DNA of 64,000 nucleotides, from contig SCQK01000014.1 of NCBI GenBank assembly GCA_004321885.1, positions 32,001-96,000 of the forward strand, read 5' to 3'. The stretch is from Patescibacteria group bacterium. Its GTDB lineage: Bacteria > Patescibacteriota > Patescibacteriia > Magasanikbacterales > GWA2-37-8. The notes under the pieces were generated by a model. That model was not told the DNA's origin, ran no database searches, and was given only the letters and a program-made list of their open reading frames with translations. Positions 11,997-58,913 of this stretch are shown here, piece by piece; the stretch's first letter is position 1, and each line of letters opens with the position of its first letter. A program made the position numbers and the translations under genes.

Positions 11997-12083
11997 GCCC
12001 GGGTGGCGAAACTGGAAGACGCATATCCTTGAGGTGGATACGGCCGCAAGGCCTTGGAGGTTCGAGTCCTCTCCCGGGCACCA
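11997..12083 (+). tRNA. tRNA-Leu(GAG), CCA encoded
   Basis: Acceptor GCCCGGG/CCCGGGC, anticodon stem TATCC/GGATA, loop TTGAGGT (anticodon GAG), long variable arm GGCCGCAAGGCC, T-arm GGAGGTTCGAGTCCTCT, terminal ACCA. Confidence 0.85.
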
Positions 12084-34017: not shown

Positions 34018-34035
34018 GTCAATATTTGTTACGAG

Positions 34036-34108
34036 TCGGGCTGGCGGGACTTGAACCCGCGGCCTCATGGTCCCGAACCATGCGCGCTACCAACTGCGCT
34101 ACAGCCCG
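34036..34108 (-). tRNA. tRNA-Pro(CGG)
   Basis: Minus-strand CGGGCTG-TA-GCGC-AGTTGGTA-GCGC-G-CATGG-TTCGGGA-CCATG-AGGCC-GCGGG-TTCAAGT-CCCGC-CAGCCCG-A. Anticodon CGG. Confidence 0.85.
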
Positions 34109-34117
34109 AATTATTAC

Positions 34118-34384
34118 TTATTTCGTTTTGATTAGTTTATCATTAATAATTTTTTCAATATAGTCTCTTCTTTTTAATCTTTTAAGTTTGAGTTCAATTC
34201 GTCTCGCTTCCGTCGTTGTTTCGTAGTGCTGTTTAAATTTTATTATCCATGGGCCTTTATTTTTTGTTGAAGGTGTCTCCCCATTATTGTGTTCAATCAG
34301 CCGGTTTTCCGGATTGTTTGAAGACCCTATATAATACATTCCTGATTTAAGACTTTGCAAGATATAAACGTAAAAACCCTCCAT
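34118..34384 (-). CDS. Small free-standing GIY-YIG nuclease-domain protein
   Basis: 88 aa from MEGFYVYILQSLKSGMYYIGSSNNPENRLIEHN (GIY...YIG...R...E.N). Extremely AT-rich. Sits between tRNA-Pro and a partial tRNA-Pro copy. Confidence 0.7.
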   Translation of the reverse strand: MEGFYVYILQSLKSGMYYIGSSNNPENRLIEHNNGETPSTKNKGPWIIKFKQHYETTTEARRIELKLKRLKRRDYIEKIINDKLIKTK

Positions 34385-34400
34385 AATTGACTTTTTAATA

Positions 34401-34459
34401 GAACCCGCGGCCTCCCCGACGTACCGTCGGGGCGCGCTACCAACTGCGCTACAGCCCGA
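34401..34459 (-). pseudogene. Partial tRNA-Pro copy (acceptor 5' strand + D-arm + T-arm start) with anticodon arm replaced by CCCCGAC-GTACC-GTCGGGG hairpin
   Basis: 28 nt (34432-34459) identical to the 5' portion of tRNA-Pro (34082-34109) and gaacccgcggcc (34401-34412) identical to 34055-34066. No 3' acceptor strand. Confidence 0.6.
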
Positions 34460-34463
34460 TTGT

Positions 34464-34509
34464 ATGGATTCCCGCTTTCCCGCCAAAGGCGGGCAGGCGC
34501 GGGAATGAT
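34464..34509. repeat. Third GTCATTCCCGC...GCGGGAATCCA palindromic element (inverted orientation) with nested CCCGCC-AAAG-GCGGG hairpin
   Basis: Reverse complement reads ATCATTCCCGCgcctgCCCGCCTTTGGCGGGaaaGCGGGAATCCA. Confidence 0.5.
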
Positions 34510-41298: not shown

Positions 41299-43022
41299 AA
41301 AGAAAATATTGGATTATCGGGGGAATAGTCGTGTTGGCCATCGGCGGCCTGGTTTATCGCGGCTACAAAAAAAGCCATCCGCCGGCGCAATACGAAACAG
41401 TGAAAATTCAGCGCGGGGATTTGAAACAGACCGTGGAGGTAACCGGCAAGGTGGAGGCAAACGATGATTTGTCTTTGCGTTTTGAGGTGCCTGGCACAGT
41501 GGGCAATGTGGCGGTAAAAGAAGGGCAGAAGGTTAAAAAAGGGCAGACACTGGCGTCTTTGCGTCTGGCCGACCTCAACGCGGCCGTGGCCCAGGCCGCG
41601 GCCAATTTGAACCAAAAATTAGCCGGCGCCACGCAGTCGGAACGGGATTATTACAAGGCCGTGATGGAACAGGCCCAGGCCGACTGGGATAAGGCCAAAG
41701 TGGACACGGCCGCCAGTATTGCCACAGCCGAGTCCGCGTACATCACCGCCAAAAATAATCTTAAGCTGGCCGAGGGCGGGGAAAACAGCCTCATTGTAAA
41801 TAACGCCTACGACAACGCCATCATCACGGCTCAAACTTCCCTTTCGGTTTTAGACGACGGCCTCACCCAGGCCGACAATATCTTGGGCATAGACAACACT
41901 CTGGCCAACGACAGTTTTGAAAGTTATTTATCTTTGCTTGACCTAAACAAATTAAATTTAGCAAAATCCTCTTATGCCACTGCCAAAGAAGCCAAGGCCG
42001 CGGCGCGCGCCGCGATTTCGGCTCTGGCCGTAAAAGTTTCCAGTCATAGCGATGTGGACAGCGCGCTCGTCAAAGCCGCCGATGCCGCGACCAGGATGAA
42101 TACCTTGCTTTCGCAGGTCTCGGAAGTTTTATACAACACCGCGCCCATGGGTTCGCTGACACAAGCCTCTTTGGACGCCAAAAAAACTACTATTGAAACC
42201 ACGCGCGCCAGCGTCAATGCCCAGTATAAAAAAATAGTGGAGGCCCAGCAGGCTATCGTGGACGCCAAGAGCAGTTATTCAAACTACCAGGTGGCCTATG
42301 ATAAAGCGGCCAAAGATTTAGCTGATGCCAAAGCCGCCGCCGAGAGCGCCCTTAAAATAAAAGAAGCGCTGTACAACCAGGCGTACGCGAATTGGCAGAA
42401 TAAAACTAGCCCCACCCGCGCCGTGGACGTGGCCGCCTATCGCGCCGCTCTGGCCCAGGCCGCGGCCAACAGAAACAAGGCTATCATCGCCGCGCCCATA
42501 GACGGCCAGGTGGCCAAGATAAACAAAAAAGTCGGCGAGCTGGTAACCTCGGCCGACGTGATGATAAATTTGATATCCCCGCATTTTGTGATAAAGGTGG
42601 ATGTGCCCGAGACCGATGTTTCCAAGCTGACCGTGGGCGACCAGGCGGCGATAACCTTGGACGCCTGGGGCAGTGACACAAAATTTTCCGGCGGGGTAAC
42701 GGCAATAGAATCCAATTCCACCGAGATTCAGGATGTGGTTTATTACAAGGTTAAAATTCGCATCATGCCGGCCAGCGCGCCGGTTAAAGCCGGCATGACC
42801 GCGAATATTACCGTGGACACGGATGCGCGCGCCGGAGTTTTGTTTGTGCCCCTACGCTCGGTGCGCACCGATGTGGAAGACAAGCGCTTTGTGAAGGTGT
42901 TAGAGAACGGCGAAGAGAAAGACGTGTACGTGAGATTGGGTTTGAAAGCGAATGAGGGGAAGGTGGAAATTTTAGAGGGGCTGACCGAGGGGCAGGAAGT
43001 GATTCTCTCCATAAAAAAATAA
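41295..43022 (+). CDS. HlyD/MacA-family periplasmic adaptor (membrane fusion protein) with long coiled coil
   Basis: N-terminal TM, biotinyl/lipoyl-like VKIQRGDL...GKVEA...GQKVKKGQTLASL, extended Ala/Gln-rich coiled coil, C-terminal beta-barrel. ATG 41295 overlaps the cca stop. Confidence 0.75.
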   Translation: MKRKYWIIGGIVVLAIGGLVYRGYKKSHPPAQYETVKIQRGDLKQTVEVTGKVEANDDLSLRFEVPGTVGNVAVKEGQKVKKGQTLASLRLADLNAAVAQAAANLNQKLAGATQSERDYYKAVMEQAQADWDKAKVDTAASIATAESAYITAKNNLKLAEGGENSLIVNNAYDNAIITAQTSLSVLDDGLTQADNILGIDNTLANDSFESYLSLLDLNKLNLAKSSYATAKEAKAAARAAISALAVKVSSHSDVDSALVKAADAATRMNTLLSQVSEVLYNTAPMGSLTQASLDAKKTTIETTRASVNAQYKKIVEAQQAIVDAKSSYSNYQVAYDKAAKDLADAKAAAESALKIKEALYNQAYANWQNKTSPTRAVDVAAYRAALAQAAANRNKAIIAAPIDGQVAKINKKVGELVTSADVMINLISPHFVIKVDVPETDVSKLTVGDQAAITLDAWGSDTKFSGGVTAIESNSTEIQDVVYYKVKIRIMPASAPVKAGMTANITVDTDARAGVLFVPLRSVRTDVEDKRFVKVLENGEEKDVYVRLGLKANEGKVEILEGLTEGQEVILSIKK

Positions 43023-43028
43023 ACCCCA

Positions 43029-43067
43029 CCCTGCCACCACACCAAAGATTTTGGTGTGGTGGCAGGG
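43029..43067. repeat. Strong intergenic hairpin CCCTGCCACCACACCAAA-gat-TTTGGTGTGGTGGCAGGG
   Basis: 18-bp perfect stem between the adaptor and ABC ATPase genes. Shares the CACACCAA/TTGGTGTG core with the inverted repeats bounding the tRNA-Gly intervening sequence. Confidence 0.55.
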
Positions 43068-43081
43068 GGAGGGGTATTTTT

Positions 43082-54278: not shown

Positions 54279-54298
54279 TTTGTGACCCGGCTGGGATT
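54279..54298 (-). repeat. 20-nt direct duplicate of tRNA-Lys 3' end (T-loop to trailer)
   Basis: tttgtgacccggctgggatt identical to 54470-54489 at the 3' end of tRNA-Lys, 191 bp away. Degenerate similarity continues a few nt beyond. Confidence 0.6.
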
Positions 54299-54473
54299 TG
54301 GCCTCGCCTCTCGCTCGCTTCCGCTCGCTCGGGCTGGCCACCGCCTCGCGGTTTGGCTCGCCCATAAGCTCGCCAAACATCGCTCCGGCGTTCGAATCCC
54401 ACCGCGAGCAAAACTATTTGCTCGCTGCCGGTTCCCAAAATTCAAATCCGCCTAATTGCGGATTTTAATTTTG

Positions 54474-54546
54474 TGACCCGGCTGGGATTCGAACCCAGGA
54501 CCTCTTCCTTAAAAGGGAATTGCTCTACCAACTGAGCTACCGGGCC
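54474..54546 (-). tRNA. tRNA-Lys(UUU)
   Basis: Minus-strand GGCCCGG-TA-GCTC-AGTTGGTA-GAGC-A-ATTCC-CTTTTAA-GGAAG-AGGTC-CTGGG-TTCGAAT-CCCAG-CCGGGTC-A. Anticodon TTT. Confidence 0.85.
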
Positions 54547-54634: not shown

Positions 54635-55207
54635 ATGCTCAATAAAAAGTATTTTCAAAAAGTCCGGGGAGATTTGTTAAATTATGCCGGCGTGCACCGT
54701 GAGGTGATAAAAATTTGCGGTGATGCCCAGCATTTAGCCAAAAAAGCCATTTTTGCCATGCAAAGAGACGGGGGCAAAGACGCGGACAAGCTTTTGGAGC
54801 AGGCGCGCGCGCTTTTGGCCGGTCTGCAAAAAAAGCACGCCAAAGACAGCCGCGTGTTTGACGAGGGCGCCTACAAAGCGGCTATGGAGGAGTTCGCGGA
54901 AGCGGCGCTGTTTTCGGAATATTTGCGGGGCGAAGAAATGGGTGAAATAAAAAATTTAAACGTCAGTTCGGAAAGTTTCGTCGGCGGTTTGTGTGATGTG
55001 CCGGGCGAACTCTTGCGTTATGCCATCAAGTCGGCCACGGAAAAGGATTTCAAAAAAGTAAAAAAATGTTTTGACGCGGCCGATGCTGTTTTGCGTGAAT
55101 TAATGGACATGGACTTGACCGGATACAACCGCCAGAAATTTGACCAGGCCAAACAGGCCTGGTACAAGCTGGAGCAGGTGGCGTATGAGGTGAGCATGAA
55201 GGGGTGA
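54635..55207 (+). CDS. Hypothetical all-helical protein, possible translin-family
   Basis: 190 aa. C-terminus YKLEQVAYEVSMKG and GAYKAAMEEFAEAALFSEYLRGEE resemble translin C-terminal motifs. Weak. Confidence 0.35.
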   Translation: MLNKKYFQKVRGDLLNYAGVHREVIKICGDAQHLAKKAIFAMQRDGGKDADKLLEQARALLAGLQKKHAKDSRVFDEGAYKAAMEEFAEAALFSEYLRGEEMGEIKNLNVSSESFVGGLCDVPGELLRYAIKSATEKDFKKVKKCFDAADAVLRELMDMDLTGYNRQKFDQAKQAWYKLEQVAYEVSMKG

Positions 55208-58595: not shown

Positions 58596-58787
58596 TGGAG
58601 CGGGATACGAGAATCGAACTCGCATCTCTTGCTTGCCCCCACACCAATAATATTGAGCGGACGATGGGAATCGAACCCACGCCTCAACCTTGGGAAGGTC
58701 GCATACTACCATTATACTACGCCCGCGTATCGCACTATTGGTGTGGGGGCTTGGGAAGCAAGCATACTGCCACTGTACTAATCCCGC
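58596..58787 (-). tRNA. Split tRNA-Gly(CCC) gene: 5' half 58787-58751 and 3' half 58632-58596 (CCA encoded), interrupted at position 37/38 by a 118-nt intervening sequence
   Basis: Halves join to GCGGGAT-TA-GTAC-AGTGGCA-GTAT-G-CTTGC-TTCCCAA-GCAAG-AGAT-GCGAG-TTCGATT-CTCGT-ATCCCGC-T-CCA with perfect acceptor and anticodon stems. Intervening sequence is bounded by 15-bp inverted repeats GCCCCCACACCAATA/TATTGGTGTGGGGGC. Confidence 0.55.
58656..58726 (-). tRNA. tRNA-Gly(CCC), intact, nested inside the split tRNA-Gly intervening sequence
   Basis: GCGGGCG-TA-GTAT-AATGGTA-GTAT-G-CGACC-TTCCCAA-GGTTG-AGGC-GTGGG-TTCGATT-CCCAT-CGTCCGC-T. Confidence 0.8.
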
Positions 58788-58792
58788 GATTG

Positions 58793-58865
58793 AGCCGACC
58801 ATGGGACTCGGACCCATAACCTACGGTTTACGATACCGTTGCTCTACCAGTTGAGCTAGGTCGGC
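58793..58865 (-). tRNA. tRNA-Thr(CGU)
   Basis: GCCGACC-TA-GCTC-AACTGGTA-GAGC-A-ACGGT-ATCGTAA-ACCGT-AGGTT-ATGGG-TCCGAGT-CCCAT-GGTCGGC-T. Confidence 0.85.
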
Positions 58866-58913
58866 GTTACTGCATACATTTTGCCAGAAAAACTGGCGCG
58901 GGTCAATGACCTG

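Follow-up and report, generated by a model that had tools for sequence, protein, structure and literature searches.

A tRNA-Gly(CCC) gene nested within a second tRNA-Gly(CCC) gene in an uncultured Magasanikbacteria-like bacterium

We examined a tRNA cluster on a 64-kb stretch of DNA (hereafter the window) from a metagenome-assembled genome (MAG) of a Patescibacteria/Magasanikbacteria-like (CPR) bacterium. The genes surrounding the cluster encode a translin-family protein, a Mur ligase, DivIC, a parvulin-type PPIase, FtsE, FtsX and GMP synthase. The PPIase is 100% identical to an NCBI protein from a Patescibacteria group bacterium MAG and its nearest relatives, at 60% identity or less, are from Candidatus Magasanikbacteria, so this is a CPR bacterium with no close relative in the collections, and the assumption of the first-pass annotation that the host is bacterial was right. 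Read on the minus strand, the region is organised as follows.

58878..58906 (minus), promoter-like site TTGACC-17 nt-CAAAAT, with TG before the second hexamer, ending 12 nt upstream of tRNA-Thr; a consensus match only, from which a promoter for the Thr-Gly transcription unit is inferred
58793..58865 (minus), intact tRNA-Thr(CGU) (Rfam 63.7 bits), 5 nt upstream of the outer tRNA-Gly
58751..58787 (minus), 5' half of the outer tRNA-Gly(CCC), 37 nt: acceptor 5' strand, D arm, anticodon stem 5' strand and loop TTCCCAA, ending ...GCTTGCTTCCCAA
58749..58753 (minus), left copy of a 5-nt direct repeat, CAAGC, which could be a target-site duplication or a microhomology
58736..58750 (minus), 5' arm of the inverted repeat, GCCCCCACACCAATA
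58727..58735 (minus), 9-nt leader, GTGCGATAC
58656..58726 (minus), inner tRNA-Gly(CCC), 71 nt, intact, without an encoded CCA, presumed to be the working gene
58650..58655 (minus), 6-nt trailer, CAATAT
58635..58649 (minus), 3' arm of the inverted repeat, TATTGGTGTGGGGGC, followed by AA
58631..58635 (minus), right copy of the direct repeat CAAGC
58596..58632 (minus), 3' half of the outer tRNA-Gly(CCC), 37 nt (GCAAG...CCCGCTCCA): anticodon stem 3' strand, variable loop, T arm, acceptor 3' strand, U73 and an encoded CCA

The first-pass annotation had described one tRNA-Gly(CCC) gene split by a 118-nt interruption containing a second, intact tRNA-Gly(CCC) between inverted-repeat arms, and this observation was confirmed, as the sequence reads exactly as described. 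ARAGORN and Rfam reported only the inner gene (Rfam tRNA, 63 bits, E 2.7e-11). A run of ARAGORN in intron mode, one of the checks proposed beforehand, also failed to report the outer gene because it overlaps the better-scoring inner one, and explicit deletion constructs were therefore used. Deletion of 58633-58750 gave a sequence, reading ...GCTTGCTTCCCAAGCAAGAG... across the joined halves, which was called by ARAGORN as a 74-nt tRNA-Gly(CCC) with a perfect 7-bp acceptor stem, a perfect 5-bp anticodon stem and one G.U in the T stem. The inverted repeat was 15/15 complementary and was the only exact copy pair in the window. The whole 198-nt stretch folded as two nested cloverleaves joined by an 18-bp stem which stacks on the outer anticodon stem to give 25 bp (-82.6 kcal/mol, z = -5.7), and 0 of 200 shuffled sequences folded as well.

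One detail of the first-pass annotation has to be amended. The split had been placed at the canonical position 37/38, but since CAAGC (outer tRNA positions 35-39) occurs at both junctions there are six registers which give the same product, of which 37/38 is only one. The insert can equally be described as a 113-bp element with 13-bp perfect terminal inverted repeats and a 5-bp duplication.

Because the sequence derives from a MAG, we considered whether the assembler had joined reads from two strains or species carrying different tRNA-Gly(CCC) genes. Logan contigs from the same run (SRR8426592) did not give independent confirmation of the junction, as they break inside the tRNA cluster at 58624 and 58820, where k-mers are shared with other tRNAs, and several related genomes share tRNA k-mers. 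However, the inner and outer genes share only about 8 nt (TTCCCAAG), which is too little for a graph mis-join, and a chimera would not create a perfect 15-bp inverted repeat or leave both outer halves exactly complementary to one gene. The same architecture was also found in other assemblies (see below), and we regard an assembly artefact as very unlikely.

To determine the origin of the outer gene we examined 17 distinct Magasanikbacteria-like loci (designated by L numbers) which share the PPIase-tRNA-ftsE neighbourhood. In the others, a single uninterrupted tRNA-Gly(CCC) follows the PPIase gene. In locus L002 the uninterrupted gene lies between the same PPIase and ftsE genes and is 71/72 identical to the joined outer halves; the 5' half is identical to L002:4995-5031 except for one D-loop base and the 3' half is identical to the 3' part of the L002 gene. 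The copy in L029 is 71/74 identical. This sequence, which we term type A (GCGGGATTAGTACA...), is the widespread allele on a PPIase tree and is also found in outgroups, while a type B allele (GCGGGTATAGTATAGTGGTAATATG...) is scattered patchily over that tree. The inner gene is neither of these, its closest sampled relatives being L028 (61/72) and the type B gene of L018 (60/72). The window therefore shows the resident type A gene interrupted by a foreign allele.

The order of the two tRNA genes remains unexplained. In the window tRNA-Thr and tRNA-Gly lie on the strand opposite to their neighbours, in the transcription order Thr then Gly, while in nearly all relatives the order is Gly then Thr on the same strand as the neighbours. 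Three loci (L035, L052, L097) show a simple block inversion, but a single inversion does not convert the common arrangement into that of the window.

Nesting with the same anticodon was also observed at the adjacent tRNA-Thr(CGU) gene in two deeply diverged relatives. In L018 (PPIase 58% identical to that of the window) the tRNA-Thr(CGU) is split in its D stem at 23/24 by an insert consisting of CCTGTCCGCCATCGCC-TAA, a different intact tRNA-Thr(CGU), then CA-GGCGTTGGCAGGCGGG, and removal of this insert restored a perfect tRNA-Thr. The identical sequence was present in an independent ENA assembly of that genome, L019. In L029 the nesting is two layers deep. A 5' relic of one tRNA-Thr (GCCCTCTTAGTTCAGTGGCAGA) is followed by a cassette homologous to that of L018 at the same 23/24 site, and the tRNA-Thr of this cassette is itself split at 35/36 by a 189-nt insert holding a third, intact tRNA-Thr(CGU) between long complementary flanks. 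Removal of the 189 nt restored a perfect middle tRNA, while the outermost gene has no recognisable 3' part. A brute-force scan, in which every interval of up to 200 nt on each side of every tRNA detected in all fetched loci was deleted and ARAGORN re-run, found same-anticodon nesting in these three loci only (the window, L018 = L019 and L029) and no nesting of different anticodons. Additional syntenic loci (L113-L116, L123-L124) showed no further nesting. All four events share one design, old 5' part, arm, new tRNA, complementary arm and old 3' part, and the arms pair in the predicted folds.

The L018 and L029 cassettes are homologous, with inner tRNAs 65/72 identical (the differences being largely compensatory) and arms about 12/16 identical, and they occupy the same site. 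The genes which they interrupt differ, however. The outer gene of L018 is of the ACGGT/ACCGT anticodon-stem kind seen in the window and L002, while the relic in L029 is 21/22 identical to the functional gene of L024, which is of the GTGGT/ACCAC kind. The two genomes share only 46% PPIase identity. A single ancient insertion cannot explain outer genes that differ by coordinated stem changes and match functional genes elsewhere, and the simplest reading is independent, site-specific arrival of one cassette family.

The insert was next compared with known types of interruption. No group I or group II intron signature was found with Rfam (no Intron_gpI, RF00028, hit at E <= 10 over 54-61 kb or at E <= 5 over the whole window), and the insert is too short, since group I introns are typically 200 nt or more and only 47 of the 118 nt lie outside the inner tRNA. 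Group I introns in tRNA anticodon loops are common in Patescibacteria and are missed by standard tRNA finders (PMC13011429), as is the outer gene here, but no ribozyme core is present, two of the related events are in the D stem and the insert contains a tRNA. A bulge-helix-bulge (BHB) motif, two 3-nt bulges separated by a 4-bp helix, was also not found. The minimum-energy fold has a 5-nt bulge (CCCAA) on the 5' strand opposite a continuous 25-bp 3' strand, and a manual attempt to build a BHB left an 8-nt bulge. As in archaeal BHB introns and Nanoarchaeum split tRNAs, GC-rich complementary sequences flank the two halves and bring them together and the split lies at or near 37/38, and some archaeal tRNA introns contain a functional RNA, such as the box C/D RNA in the tRNA-Trp intron. 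Here, however, the host is a bacterium in which no splicing endonuclease is known, and the enclosed RNA is a tRNA with the same anticodon. The genes examined near the locus are cell-envelope and housekeeping genes.

Of the first-pass annotation's two readings, that of a processed, non-canonical intron is not excluded, but it has no positive support and we consider it unlikely. In this view the whole unit would be transcribed, the inner tRNA cut out by RNase P and RNase Z, and the outer halves, held together by the arm helix, trimmed and ligated by an unknown endonuclease and ligase (for example an RtcB-type ligase), or they would work as a two-piece tRNA, so that both tRNAs would be functional. 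The reading is kept alive by the flawless outer cloverleaves in three of four events, by insertions exact to the base (two with no duplication), by arms which pair as RNA on the sense strand with six G.U against two A.C mismatches, by the stacking of the anticodon stem on the arm helix and by an arm-plus-half layout which resembles Nanoarchaeum split tRNAs. It is weakened by the lack of a BHB or any common junction motif across the four events (anticodon loop, 35/36 and D stem 23/24), by the lost 3' half in L029, by the same cassette sitting in different host alleles, which indicates DNA mobility, and by the shared anticodon, since nothing is gained by keeping both genes. A stub left in the anticodon loop would also block decoding. 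If this unlikely reading were true, one transcript would yield two (in L029 up to three) tRNAs, and this would be the first protein-dependent, non-self-splicing tRNA intron in Bacteria.

The other reading offered, that a miniature element bounded by inverted repeats and carrying its own tRNA-Gly disrupted the host gene and compensates for it, is favoured by the comparative evidence, so that the first-pass interpretation is partly supported. The insert resembles miniature inverted-repeat transposable elements (MITEs) in being short, non-coding, bounded by terminal inverted repeats (perfect over 15 bp, or 13 bp if the duplication is excluded) and flanked by a 5-nt direct repeat. MITEs are, however, multi-copy and carry no functional cargo, whereas no other copy of the arms was found in the 64-kb window, no transposase was identified, only one instance of the Gly cassette was found and the target is always the gene of the same isoacceptor. 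The label 'TIR-like' used in the first-pass annotation also does not generalise. The arms in the relatives are imperfect helices with G.U pairs, which fits selection on an RNA helix better than protein-recognised terminal repeats, and junctions carry no duplication in L018 and at most 1 nt in L029. A single classical transposition mechanism is therefore not established for all events.

Other mobile elements were considered. Genomic islands and prophages which integrate into tRNA genes and restore them (Islander-type; PMC4383910) likewise land inside a tRNA gene, compensate the disruption with tRNA sequence carried by the insert and leave a displaced fragment of the old gene. Such islands are kilobases long, encode an integrase, carry only a partial tRNA copy identical to the target and leave one displaced fragment, while here the 118-bp insert has no ORF, carries a complete tRNA of different sequence, repeats only 5 nt at its ends, and both halves of the old gene remain. 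Serine-integrase integration was rejected as it would leave the same crossover dinucleotide at both junctions and L018 has none, and an integron cassette was rejected since there is no GTTRRRY-type core. With regard to IS200/IS605-like ends, only the innermost L029 cassette has a separate hairpin at each end and no common target tetranucleotide was found. A hairpin at 43015-43081 shares CCACACCAA with the arms, but about 0.4 such matches are expected by chance and it looks like an ordinary terminator. Scans of viral contigs for the Gly arms, the Thr arms and the GIY-YIG hairpin (see below) found nothing. Intervening sequences of bacterial rRNA genes also have ends which form a long helix inside a structured RNA gene and are excised by RNase III without religation. 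Comparable stems form in L018 and L029, and the stem here would likewise be a likely RNase III substrate, but fragmented rRNA still works whereas a tRNA broken in its anticodon loop should not, and here the insert itself supplies the function.

A second kind of tRNA-associated insert was found at 34458-34035 on the minus strand of the window. A copy of the first 27 nt of tRNA-Pro(CGG) is followed by a hairpin (CCCGACGGTACGTCGGGG) in place of the anticodon arm, 14 nt of variable loop and T stem, an 88-aa GIY-YIG ORF (34384-34118; Pfam E 1.9e-15; UPF0213/SLX1-like) and the full tRNA-Pro. Homologues of this protein in other CPR contigs sit in the same layout beside tRNA-Pro, tRNA-His and tRNA-Val, sometimes in tandem. 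Free-standing GIY-YIG homing endonucleases such as T4 SegB (PMC2330249) also spread by targeting tRNA gene regions, but the protein in the window is a catalytic domain with no DNA-binding domain. The Gly cassette has neither an ORF nor the YCCGAC...GTCGGR hairpin of these elements, and a tblastn search with the GIY-YIG protein found nothing near the nested loci. The only link is a motif 23 nt upstream of the element (34497-34482) which matches the L029 cassette arm at 15 of 16 positions, and a mechanistic connection to the Gly cassette is conjecture. These elements do show that tRNA genes in these genomes are frequent targets of small inserts that carry tRNA sequence.

This background also bears on the possibility of a one-off capture, in which a double-strand break (made, for example, by a tRNA-gene-directed nuclease) or a replication accident in the resident gene was repaired by microhomology-mediated capture of foreign tRNA-bearing DNA taken up from relatives. 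Homology between tRNA genes would steer the fragment to its own isoacceptor and the arms would have come from the donor context. The 5-nt microhomology in the window (0-1 nt in the other events), the patchy distribution of tRNA alleles on the PPIase tree and the role of tRNA genes here as hotspots for foreign DNA, including the GIY-YIG elements, serine-recombinase elements next to tRNA-Gly and a repeated tRNA-Lys 3' end, are in agreement with this. However, illegitimate repair usually deletes or duplicates bases, yet three outer genes are preserved exactly, and homologous Thr cassettes, arms included, at an identical site in two distant genomes are hard to obtain by independent accidents. All four events also share the arm-tRNA-arm design. 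We consider this rival doubtful, although less so than RNA-level splicing.

The explanation which we favour, with confidence only a little better than even, is gene replacement by a small, non-coding DNA cassette, made of a foreign tRNA-Gly(CCC) allele and helix-forming arms, which inserted into the anticodon loop of the resident gene. The analysis itself establishes that the outer gene is the ancestral allele at this locus, that the insertion is exact, that the same architecture recurs in relatives, always with the same anticodon, and that the related Thr cassettes occupy one site in different host alleles, so they move between genomes. The remainder is inferred from sequence. In this model Thr and the nested Gly unit are probably one transcript from the promoter-like site upstream of tRNA-Thr, and the arms zip into an 18-25 bp RNA stem which isolates the inner pre-tRNA from its look-alike flanks, probably guides processing and is a plausible RNase III substrate. 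RNase P and 3' processing plus CCA addition would release the inner tRNA, which would now supply tRNA-Gly(CCC). The outer halves would be a recently inactivated gene that will be lost by deletion, as has already begun in L029, and only insertions bringing the same anticodon would survive, because these reduced genomes are presumed to carry one gene per tRNA. We have to admit that flawless outer cloverleaves in three of four events need either very recent insertions or selection on the outer copy. Candidates for the activity which moves the cassette are a trans-acting transposase, homologous recombination through the conserved tRNA halves after DNA uptake, or a nuclease such as the UPF0213/SLX1-like GIY-YIG proteins found beside other disrupted tRNA copies in this genome. 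That these are a new class of recombinase-less 'tRNA-in-tRNA' homing cassettes, targeting the gene of the isoacceptor which they carry, is possible but somewhat less likely than not.

Literature searches for nested tRNAs, for GIY-YIG genes next to tRNA genes and for CPR tRNA introns returned only group I intron work, and no description of a tRNA nested in a tRNA was found in the literature that could be searched. With two relatives showing the same nesting in the neighbouring tRNA-Thr gene, this looks like an undescribed way of replacing tRNA genes. Standard tRNA finders report only the inner gene and, if this is general, intron-aware pipelines could mis-call such loci and the tRNA counts used in completeness scores would not notice the relic. 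Should the outer tRNA be re-joined at the RNA level, the minority reading, this would be a new type of splicing in Bacteria.

tRNA genes are usually treated as the most static genes in a genome and as passive landing pads for large islands. These data point to something different, in that in genome-reduced CPR bacteria, presumed to carry one gene per tRNA, the tRNA genes themselves appear to turn over, with tiny cassettes inserting into the resident gene and bringing the replacement with them, and repeated rounds leaving nested 'Russian-doll' genes. If this is general, it defines a new, minimal kind of mobile or replaceable unit and would explain the patchy distribution of tRNA alleles among related lineages. 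It also raises the question of what drives the replacement, one possibility being escape from nucleases that target particular tRNA sequences.

Nested tRNA-Thr(CGU) genes were observed at two loci from relatives, L018:4200-4383 (= L019) and L029:2874-3193. L018 contained one layer, in the D stem at 23/24, while L029 contained two layers, at 23/24 and 35/36, and its outermost copy lacked the 3' part. The innermost tRNA of L029 was flanked by a 39-nt GC-rich hairpin unit which was repeated on both sides. For the window, we found that Logan contigs from the sequencing run of the MAG itself ended at 58624 and 58820, both inside the tRNA cluster, which fits k-mers shared with tRNA genes of other genomes in the sample, and the nested junctions therefore lack independent assembly support.

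To compare the arrangement of the tRNA genes, window 58596-58865 was examined alongside the loci of relatives L001-L003, L018, L021 and L024-L031. In the window tRNA-Thr and tRNA-Gly lie on the strand opposite to their neighbours, in the transcription order Thr then Gly, while the relatives have Gly then Thr on the same strand as the neighbours. A single inversion cannot convert one arrangement into the other. In three of these loci which are not each other's closest relatives (L001:5011-5040, L003:4985-5015 and L027:2466-2495), a hairpin built from the acceptor-stem sequence of the type B allele of tRNA-Gly (GCGGGYATRC-loop-GYRTRCCCGC) was found between the PPIase gene and tRNA-Gly. The stem of this hairpin shows compensatory changes, and it could be a relic of an internally deleted tRNA, or a functional minihelix or terminator. 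A long terminator-like hairpin within the window at 43015-43081 (…CCCTGCCACCACACCAAAGATTTTGGTGTGGTGGCAGGG…) shares CCACACCAA with the arms of the Gly cassette, although we judged this match to be compatible with chance.

In the window, the last 17 nt of tRNA-Lys(UUU) are repeated 175 nt downstream (54282-54298 and 54473-54489), which resembles an attachment-site scar left by a small or decayed integrated element. A translin-family gene (54635-55207, Pfam E 8e-17) sits next to tRNA-Lys and is conserved at this position in related Magasanikbacteria loci (L018, L021 and L115). Translin/TRAX proteins act as RNases in eukaryotic pre-tRNA processing. A tRNA-Leu(GAG) at 11997-12083 was called by ARAGORN but was not reported by the Rfam tRNA model, even at E <= 5.

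In other loci, large serine-recombinase genes are inserted immediately after tRNA-Gly(CCC) (L123/L124:2860-4522 and L115:3630-5252). In L124 the gene is flanked by a perfect 92-bp inverted repeat which starts 4 nt inside the 3' end of the tRNA, while in L115 the recombinase is followed by a primase-polymerase gene.

A further feature was found on the minus strand of the window at 34035-34497, where a partial copy of tRNA-Pro(CGG) precedes an ORF of the GIY-YIG type which is in turn followed by the full tRNA-Pro. The parts of this region, in order on the minus strand, are as follows.

34497-34482, minus strand, the motif CCTGCCCGCCTTTGGC
34458-34432, minus strand, tRNA positions 1-27 of the partial tRNA-Pro(CGG) copy
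between tRNA positions 1-27 and 43-56 of the partial copy, minus strand, a hairpin CCCGACGGTACGTCGGGG replacing the anticodon arm
34414-34401, minus strand, tRNA positions 43-56 of the partial copy
34384-34118, minus strand, an 88-aa GIY-YIG (UPF0213/SLX1-like) ORF
34108-34035, minus strand, the full tRNA-Pro

The motif at 34497-34482 matches the 5' arm of the L029 Thr cassette at 15 of 16 positions. Homologues of the window's GIY-YIG protein in other CPR contigs (L104-L112 and L117-L122) have the same layout, in which a partial tRNA 5' copy carrying YCCGAC...GTCGGR hairpins is followed by the GIY-YIG ORF and then by a full tRNA (Pro-CGG, Pro-GGG, His-GTG or Val-GAC). The layout is sometimes present in tandem (L108, L111), and several of these are next to PIN or toxin-antitoxin genes. 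This looks like an undescribed family of small elements associated with tRNA genes.
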